Position numbers and translations under genes: made by a program. From assembly GCF_041248615.1 (NCBI RefSeq), contig NZ_CP158426.1: a stretch of 64,000 nucleotides of DNA. The stretch is one strand, 5' to 3'. This document shows positions 6,500 to 7,510 of this stretch, piece by piece. Each line of letters starts with the position of its first letter. Positions within the stretch are counted from its first letter, which is position 1. This DNA is from Escherichia coli (GTDB lineage Bacteria > Pseudomonadota > Gammaproteobacteria > Enterobacterales > Enterobacteriaceae). The notes beneath the pieces were generated by a model. The model was not told the DNA's origin and did no database searches. It saw only the letters and a program-made list of their open reading frames with translations.

Positions 6500-7456
6500 A
6501 TGTCATACTCGCTTTTTGACAAAGACGAGCACTGGCATAAGCCAGAGCAGGCGTTTCTCACCGATGACCACCGGACCATTCTGCGCTTCGCCGTAGAGGC
6601 GCTAATGTCCGGTAAAGGAGCGGTGCTGGTGACGCTGGTGGAGATACGCGGCGGCGCGGCGCGCCCGCTCGGGGCGCAGATGGTGGTGCGCGAAGATGGT
6701 CGTTACTGCGGTTTTGTCTCTGGCGGCTGCGTGGAGGCCGCTGCCGCTTTTGAAGCGCTGGAGATGATGGGCTCAGGCCGCGATCGCGAAATTCGCTATG
6801 GTGAAGGTTCGCCGTGGTTTGACATCGTTCTGCCCTGCGGCGGTGGGATCACGCTGACGCTCCATAAACTACGCTCGGCACAGCCTCTGCTCGCCGTGCT
6901 GAACCGCCTGGAACAGAGAAAACCGGCGGGTCTGCGCTACGATCCGCAAGCTCAATCGCTGGTGTGCCTGCCCACGCAAACCCGGACGGGCTGGAATCTC
7001 AATGGCTTTGAGGTGGGGTTCAGACCATGCGTCAGTCTGATGATTTACGGACGTTCTCTTGAGGCGCAGGCAACCGCGAGTCTTGCAGCAGCCACAGGCT
7101 ATGACAGCCATATCTTCGATCTTTTTCCGGCCTCAGCCAGCGCTCAGATCGATACCGATACGGCGGTCATTTTGCTGTGCCATGATCTCAACCGGGAGCT
7201 GCCAGTGTTGCAGGCCGCGCGAGAGGCAAAACCCTTTTATCTCGGCGCATTGGGCAGCTATCGAACCCACACTTTACGTCTGCAAAAGCTCCACGAGCTG
7301 GGATGGTCCAGGGAGGAGACAGCGCAAATCCGGGCACCCGTCGGGATATTCCCCAAAGCCCGGGATGCGCATACTCTGGCACTCTCCGTGCTGGCAGAAG
7401 TCGCCTCTGTACGTCTCCATCAGGAGGAGGATTCATGCCTGCCCCCGTCGTCCTGA
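6500..7456 (+). CDS. paoD: XdhC-like molybdenum cofactor insertion chaperone
   Basis: 318 aa, XdhC/CoxI family, follows paoC with RBS ggagg. Confidence 0.85.
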   Translation: MSYSLFDKDEHWHKPEQAFLTDDHRTILRFAVEALMSGKGAVLVTLVEIRGGAARPLGAQMVVREDGRYCGFVSGGCVEAAAAFEALEMMGSGRDREIRYGEGSPWFDIVLPCGGGITLTLHKLRSAQPLLAVLNRLEQRKPAGLRYDPQAQSLVCLPTQTRTGWNLNGFEVGFRPCVSLMIYGRSLEAQATASLAAATGYDSHIFDLFPASASAQIDTDTAVILLCHDLNRELPVLQAAREAKPFYLGALGSYRTHTLRLQKLHELGWSREETAQIRAPVGIFPKARDAHTLALSVLAEVASVRLHQEEDSCLPPSS

Positions 7457-7510
7457 TCCTTGCGGCCGGGCGTGGAGAGCGCTTTCTCGCCTCCGGGGGA
7501 AATACCCATA
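7433..7510 (+). pseudogene. Remnant of a MocA/MobA-like molybdenum-cofactor nucleotidyltransferase gene (first ~25 codons only)
   Basis: MPAPVVLILAAGRGERF motif typical of MobA-like NTP transferases, overlapping paoD 3' end; similarity is lost after ~25 residues. Confidence 0.4.

Follow-up and report, generated by a model that had tools for sequence, protein, structure and literature searches.

A probable remnant of a fifth pao gene behind paoD in Escherichia coli

PaoD has been described as the product of the last gene of the E. coli pao operon (PMC3909100). Why, then, does a second start codon lie inside the end of paoD, and what does the reading frame behind it represent? We addressed this question in a stretch of E. 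coli DNA of 64,000 nucleotides, called the window here. The operon lies on its plus strand, with paoA at 2653–3342, paoB at 3339–4295, paoC at 4292–6490 and paoD, which encodes an XdhC-type molybdenum cofactor insertion chaperone and is the last intact pao gene, at 6500–7456. These genes were placed by the list of open reading frames and by RefSeq annotation; the latter was taken from strain NRZ14408, which is 100% identical to the window over 7300–8100. We conclude that the 81 nt at 7435–7515 are very probably the dead N-terminal stub of a fifth pao gene that was lost by deletion in E. coli.

The ATG of the stub is found at 7435–7437, and its frame overlaps the end of paoD by 22 nt. A Shine–Dalgarno-like sequence, AGGAGGAGG, could be read from the sequence at 7422–7430 on the plus strand, within the paoD coding sequence and 4 nt 5′ of the ATG. 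Intact operons of other bacteria, such as the closest locus found (L003), show the identical arrangement of Shine–Dalgarno sequence and ATG; judged by this agreement, AGGAGGAGG is the inherited start signal of the lost gene. A preliminary description of this DNA had noted an ATG reading out of paoD and about 22 residues resembling MobA/MocA enzymes. The start and the resemblance are borne out, with the position corrected from 7433 to 7435 and the overlap from 24 to 22 nt, and the similarity is longer than described, running through codon 27 (7515). The scan of 7300–7900 for promoter and terminator consensus sequences gave no calls.

The 27 codons of the remnant (7435–7515, plus strand; MPAPVVLILAAGRGERFLASGGNTHKL), delimited by tblastn, a family profile and DNA identity ending at 7515, include a nucleotide-binding loop of the form LAAGxGxRF. 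The segment LILAAGRGERF aligns with ITAAGLSSRM of MocA and VLAGGKARRM of MobA, with A10, G12 and R16 invariant, and it conforms to the pattern L-A-[AG]-G-x-x-x-R-[MF] of the Pfam family PF12804. Translation from 7435 opens MPAPVVLILAAGRGERFLASGGNTHKLREKS and continues for 109 codons to 7764. This longer plus-strand frame is accidental: past the stub, it continues through unrelated sequence that lies antisense to the 3′-terminal part of a transporter gene of the major facilitator superfamily (MFS).

The similarity of the stub to intact genes was compared at three levels. Each of 26 intact orthologues gave one significant tblastn match against the whole 64-kb window, always at the stub, with E values from 8e-11 to 1.5e-4 and identities of 40–92%; most of the matches end at 7515. 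Beyond noise, no C-terminal piece of the fifth gene was detected in the window (tblastn, E ≤ 10). Against a hidden Markov model built on the 26 orthologues, the 27 residues reach 39.9 bits, and addition of residues 28–40 of the frame gives no gain (38.4 bits). At the DNA level, identity is 91% to L003 over 7300–7515 and 92.8% to a Salmonella enterica contig (L093) over 6657–7515; in both comparisons it is unbroken from paoD through codon 27 and stops at 7515. The stub corresponds to 27 of the approximately 184 codons of the full-length orthologues; it occupies the orthologous position, and neither its start nor its overlap with paoD differs from theirs. Pfam scans of the 27-mer and of the 109-residue translation returned no relevant match because the piece is too short; its membership in PF12804 follows instead from orthology to the intact genes.

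Could a glycine-rich peptide resemble a MobA-type nucleotide-binding loop by chance? The motif is short and Pfam is silent on both the 27-mer and the 109-residue frame, but we regard this explanation as next to impossible in view of E values down to 8e-11 within the window, a start position and a 22-nt overlap with paoD that are those of the intact genes, and 91–93% DNA identity to intact loci that is continuous from paoD to codon 27. The same identity excludes a homology limited to a shared P-loop-like motif. The preliminary description had proposed the tblastn comparison and had named similarity no better than chance as the outcome that would speak against a remnant; all 26 orthologues gave significant matches, and all of these fall on the stub.

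Six of the tblastn alignments extend past 7515, to 7530–7569. A 9-nt identity, GTTTTAGAA (VLE), between window 7536–7550 and L003 5040–5055 lies about 10 codons past the end of the stub, in frame with the intact gene. The match that extends some of these alignments is probably fortuitous, and homology past codon 27 was likewise taken as chance, as the family profile gains nothing from residues 28–40.

The intact gene was found by scanning one genome per bacterial species for PaoD, which gave 80 loci, 28 of them in Enterobacterales. In 26 of these 28, an intact open reading frame of 180–199 residues belonging to PF12804 overlaps the paoD stop codon; the two without it are both from Erwinia. The preliminary description had suggested looking for an intact fifth gene elsewhere in the order, and these loci provide it. 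The N-termini of most intact orthologues are 57–92% identical to the E. coli stub, with two nearer 40%; they read, for example, MTPSPVVLILAAGRGERFLASGGKTHKL in Enterobacter asburiae and MPASIVLILAAGRGGRFLTSGGSTHKL in L003. This layout recurs in further genomes, where Pfam detects the paoABCD domains together with NTP_transf_3, and all 120 relatives listed carry a precomputed PF12804 call. A complete tRNA gene was not found beside the fifth gene in any of the relatives; only Leclercia has a 3′ fragment of thrW there. In this Leclercia adecarboxylata locus (L004, 5461–5513), the 3′-terminal 44 nt of a thrW-like tRNA-Thr gene begin 4 nt past the stop codon of the intact gene and are followed by AT-rich island DNA, so that the Leclercia pao operon directly abuts the repeat of a thrW attachment site.

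What kind of protein does the intact gene encode? The orthologues score 85–94 bits against PF12804 (MobA-like NTP transferase; cut-off 27) and cover profile positions 1–156 of 160. Among NCBIfam models, the MocA/YgfJ model TIGR03310 is the best or second best, at 72–85 bits, which is below its equivalog cut-off of 186.45 bits; for one locus (L005), a DVU_1551 model lies marginally above it. PucB (TIGR03202) comes third with 45–57 bits, and the MobA models TIGR02665 and NF001457 give 16–21 bits against cut-offs of 152–164. Among solved structures, the closest in sequence is 2WE9, a mycobacterial ‘MobA/MocA-related protein’. Database names are ‘nucleotidyltransferase family protein’ and, occasionally, ‘CTP:molybdopterin cytidylyltransferase’. 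The intact protein is a distinct, compact subfamily of the MobA-like superfamily. The label ‘MocA/MobA-like’ in the preliminary description is therefore apt at the level of the superfamily (PF12804) and too narrow if read as MocA, from which the protein is separated by the equivalog cut-off and by an identity of about 21%.

Compared directly, the intact protein shares with MocA the superfamily, its best score among the NCBIfam models, and an A-A-G in the loop as in ITAAG of MocA. Both are also linked to an XdhC-type chaperone and an enzyme with the cytosine dinucleotide cofactor (PMC2997495). However, it is only 21% identical to E. coli MocA over 115 residues, has a first half of the fold that is shorter by approximately 22 residues, and carries RF-x-x-S-G-G in the loop where MocA has RMG; in E. 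coli, moreover, just 27 codons of the fifth gene are left. MobA has the same fold family and is 28% identical over the N-terminal 120 residues, but its loop reads AGG where the fifth gene has AAG. MobA serves bis-MGD enzymes and not the xanthine oxidase family. In pairwise terms, the intact protein appears about as far from MocA (21%) as from MobA (28%, N-terminal part).

The function of the intact gene can be approached through its neighborhood. Chaperone–transferase gene pairs occur in other molybdenum hydroxylase clusters (PMC2997495): in Bacillus subtilis (pucA–pucB), on Arthrobacter pAO1 and in Oligotropha, an xdhC-type chaperone gene is directly followed by, or co-transcribed with, a gene for a MobA-like transferase, as paoD is with the fifth gene. 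The fixed place of the fifth gene behind the XdhC-type chaperone of an enzyme with the cytosine dinucleotide cofactor, together with these known xdhC–mocA-type pairs, leads us to infer a cytidylyltransferase role. In E. coli, the cytosine dinucleotide cofactor for PaoD and PaoABC is reported to be made by MocA, which interacts with PaoD (PMC3909100, PMC2997495). In K-12, mocA is annotated at a distant locus. The literature searched contained nothing on a fifth pao gene, including the enterobacterial version, on this stub or on a composite origin of yagP, the K-12 gene discussed below; the name ‘paoABCDE’ in PMC12098357 refers to phenylacetate genes.

We then asked how far the truncation extends within the species. 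The DNA of the intact L003 gene was used as a query against 5,426 complete E. coli genomes, with coverage of at least 80% counted as intact. None of the 5,426 carries an intact fifth gene. Matches in 3,597 genomes reach only up to codon 27, and in the remainder, approximately 1,800, the end of paoD is absent. The truncation is accordingly a fixed trait of every pao-bearing E. coli in the sample. An Escherichia genome that retains the intact gene, the ancestor-like state, was not found, and the species-representative scan contains no other Escherichia species among its PaoD loci. Twelve matches to the paoD end and the stub belong to plasmid sequences from E. coli assemblies. Some 1,200 or more genomes, at approximately 94% identity, lose their homology to the window at about 2408–2411, and the whole block from pao to thrW is replaced; beyond about 2411, such genomes have an integrase fragment, IS1 and vat, or prophage genes. 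The B2-like, vat-carrying strain that we examined is of this kind, its homology ending at about 2408–2411, approximately 240 nt upstream of paoA.

When six E. coli types are aligned with L003, the junction falls between 7515 and 7516, as the blastn end points also indicate, and it is common to all pao-bearing E. coli types examined. The Salmonella enterica contig (L093/L094) shows what may have been lost. Its order is a 5′-truncated paoD, the intact fifth gene, 7.2 kb with genes for a DLH-type hydrolase, a two-component pair, cupin, CMD and flavodoxin-like proteins and an abhydrolase_6 protein, and then a convergent MFS gene (375 residues); in L093, the abhydrolase_6 gene converges on the MFS gene. 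The MFS gene is 77.6% identical to window 7648–7906 and has the same order and orientation as in E. coli. The E. coli layout is that of Salmonella minus the middle, which indicates that E. coli carries the deletion.

The other side of the junction agrees with this. The plus strand at 7517–7534 is GAG AAA AAT CTG CAG TAG (EKNLQ*), in a frame other than that of the stub; these are probably the five final codons and the stop codon of an α/β-hydrolase gene of the abhydrolase_6 type. The corresponding C-termini are QKNLQ* in L003, DKDLQ* in L093 and EKDLQ* in L097. When the 121-nt spacer 7516–7636 was aligned locally to all three hydrolase genes, the best alignment in each case fell on the stop codon, at the start of the spacer; among 500 shuffled spacers, 7, 65 and 13 reached the score (L003, L093 and L097, respectively), in keeping with a match of 18 nt that is individually modest. 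It is likely that this hydrolase tail marks the far end of the deletion. The deletion would be approximately 2 kb in an L003-like layout and approximately 7.1 kb in a Salmonella-like one. The exact ancestral layout and the size of the deletion are uncertain because the identity of the MFS parts is only 77.6% and relatives vary greatly in the genes that follow the fifth gene. The term ‘deletion scar’, used in the preliminary description, fits both the collinear Salmonella contig and the likeness of the sequence after the junction to the last codons of a hydrolase.

Alternatively, the truncation could be an acquisition boundary, with pao having arrived horizontally and a recombination end point having fallen at codon 27. 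The pao region adjoins the thrW integration hot spot, about 1,800 complete E. coli genomes are without pao, a B2-like strain has island or prophage DNA beyond about 2411, and no other Escherichia species turned up in the species-representative scan. The copies of Enterobacter, Pluralibacter and Salmonella reach 89–93% identity, which is high for genera such as these, and the Salmonella copy adjoins genes of the ICE type. Against this, the Salmonella contig links the fifth gene to the MFS gene found on the right of the junction, with order and orientation unchanged, and the first 18 nt past the junction resemble the end of the hydrolase gene located ahead of this MFS gene. The sequences flanking the junction would thus derive from one donor-like layout, as an internal deletion predicts, and we consider an acquisition boundary unlikely. 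The deletion could itself have occurred before or during a transfer.

Several features of the surrounding DNA were noted. The MFS gene occupies 7636–8763 on the minus strand, convergent with pao, and is a pseudogene in the window according to RefSeq (open reading frames at 7636–7833 and 7852–8829); it has an internal stop near 7834–7851 in the window strain and is intact in O55:H7, KE47 and others. A hairpin followed by UUUU lies at 7567–7592 on the minus strand (−16.4 kcal/mol, z = −2.45; on the plus strand −13.3 kcal/mol and no U-tract). The consensus scan was silent on it, and it is likely the intrinsic terminator of the convergent MFS gene. On the Salmonella contig (L093/L094, 1–5615), paoABC are absent, paoD is cut at its 5′ side beside an integrase and TraI/UvrD-type conjugative-element genes, and the fifth gene is intact. 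The pao copies of Salmonella, Pluralibacter and Enterobacter are 89–93% identical to the E. coli DNA, which suggests recent exchange. In Frateuria defendens (L028, 4958–8862), the fifth gene is absent; genes for LysR, α/β-hydrolase, MFS and SDR proteins come after the paoD homologue, and the MFS protein is 63% identical to that of E. coli; in Pseudoxanthomonas (L036 and L053, 735–3848), hydrolase and LysR genes lie upstream of pao. That these accessory genes are shared while their order is inverted in E. coli suggests old linkage or co-transfer.

Later rearrangements are best followed from O55:H7 CB9615, which has the fullest layout in E. coli: paoD, the stub, the MFS gene, an α/β-hydrolase gene, a LysR gene, a ykgR fragment, a hypothetical gene, an SDR gene, a full-length LysR gene and an island at thrW. 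In this strain, paoD is frameshifted. Relative to CB9615, the window type has a 2.05-kb deletion with a 5-nt overlap, which leaves a short LysR tail at 11673–11903. The K-12 type has a deletion of 6.13 kb between a CATAA in the stub (His25-Lys26) and a CATAA in the LysR gene (His-Lys). Both copies of CATAA are in the same codon phase, and the K-12 join is therefore in frame. It fuses 26 codons of the stub to the last 110 codons of the LysR gene in an open reading frame of 136 codons (L002, 4136–4546); the donor LysR gene is full length in CB9615 (L083, 7435–8334). In MG1655, this frame is yagP (b0282; NC_000913.3, 297381–297791; 136 residues), which overlaps paoD by 22 nt. The preliminary description had considered that the K-12 sequence might be annotated as non-coding; in fact, it begins an annotated coding sequence.

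The gene yagP is annotated as encoding a ‘putative LysR family substrate binding domain-containing protein’. It has the ATG, the first 26 codons and the overlap with paoD in common with the window stub, but in K-12 the stub runs into the LysR fragment, whereas in the window it runs into unrelated sequence and a shorter yagP fragment (the LysR tail, 231 nt) lies approximately 4 kb away at 11673–11903. As the alignment reads, K-12 yagP is a chimera of the start of a lost gene and a C-terminal LysR fragment. Approximately 2,700 genomes have the K-12-type junction and 912 the window type. A hot spot or a mobile element behind the near-identical left breaks of K-12 and the window was considered and dropped; two successive events explain them, the second acting through the CATAA microhomology 5–10 nt to the left of the older junction.

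The fusion raises the question of whether the short frame, or yagP, has become a functional new gene, either as a co-translated small protein or as a LysR effector-domain protein. The Shine–Dalgarno sequence is strong, the ATG is coupled to the paoD stop, and the K-12 fusion is in frame, annotated as a coding sequence and present in about 2,700 genomes. However, the sequence past codon 26/27 is wholly different between the lineages (antisense MFS or LysR tail), the stub is frameshifted internally in O55:H7 and O145, the conserved loop is altered (R16C, G21E), the in-frame join is explained by a microhomology that happens to encode His-Lys in both genes, and PGAP annotates the LysR part as an incomplete pseudogene. 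We consider a new function very improbable.

The variants of the stub in ten strains agree with decay; at 81 nt, it is too short for dN/dS. K-12 has R16C in the conserved loop and O128:H27 has E15K and G21E. In O55:H7 and O145, the loss of 1 nt closes the frame after 26 codons; both also have E15K and A19T, and O145 has S20C in addition. KE47 has an extra A just past the stub; the 109-codon frame of the window is accordingly not conserved among strains. In two divergent strains, silent and replacement changes are mixed, some of them common to L003. The sequence downstream also differs between the two junction types, being antisense MFS in one and the LysR tail in the other. Taken together, the stub looks like a dead, decaying fragment under relaxed constraint, with disabling changes specific to each lineage.

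The far end of the region borders thrW (12151–12226, minus strand), which lies near the 231-nt LysR tail. Beside its 3′ end, a direct repeat of 57 nt is present at 11962–12018 and 12082–12138 (89% identical, spacing 120 nt), and strain NRZ14408 appears to be without one 120-nt repeat unit. Gene remnants beside tRNA integration hot spots are common, and the LysR tail and the 57-nt repeats may be scars of island integration.

We propose the following history. In other Enterobacteriaceae, a gene for a protein of approximately 184 residues starts 22 nt before the paoD stop, and its enzyme would most likely add a nucleotide (CMP) to Mo-molybdopterin for PaoABC. A single deletion in the common ancestor of all pao-bearing E. 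coli, at least 2 kb long (approximately 7 kb measured against the Salmonella layout), would have taken codon 28 onward together with the genes downstream, ending about six codons before the stop of the convergently flanked α/β-hydrolase gene, beside the MFS gene. The loss was likely tolerable because E. coli has the unlinked mocA, which supplies the cytosine dinucleotide cofactor to PaoD and PaoABC. The stub would then have had no function of its own and would decay differently in each lineage. Its Shine–Dalgarno sequence and ATG have been preserved through their position in paoD or at its edge, and ribosomes probably continue to initiate there, with junk peptides as the product. A second deletion, of 6.1 kb and at the 5-nt CATAA microhomology, would have joined codon 26 in frame in the K-12 lineage to the C-terminal 110 codons of the LysR gene, giving yagP.

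For annotation, this reading accounts for the 81-nt unannotated stretch after paoD and for a K-12 yagP that starts inside paoD with a nucleotide-binding-loop peptide unrelated to LysR, a point at the level of a correction. Current understanding is not overturned; XdhC–MocA-type pairs are known elsewhere, and the locus adds a new example of a familiar feature. A broader view, which we hold tentatively and at somewhat less than even confidence, is that the enterobacterial pao operon normally has five genes, the last encoding a compact subfamily of molybdenum cofactor nucleotidyltransferases (approximately 21% identical to MocA) dedicated to PaoABC, and that E. coli, in which the maturation of PaoABC was elucidated, is the exception, with the hand-over from MocA to PaoD as a secondary substitution and yagP as a chimera with an inherited start. 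The intact gene would be a candidate dedicated cofactor transferase for direct testing, and the four-gene paoABCD of E. coli would be a reduced form of a five-gene operon common in Enterobacteriaceae.
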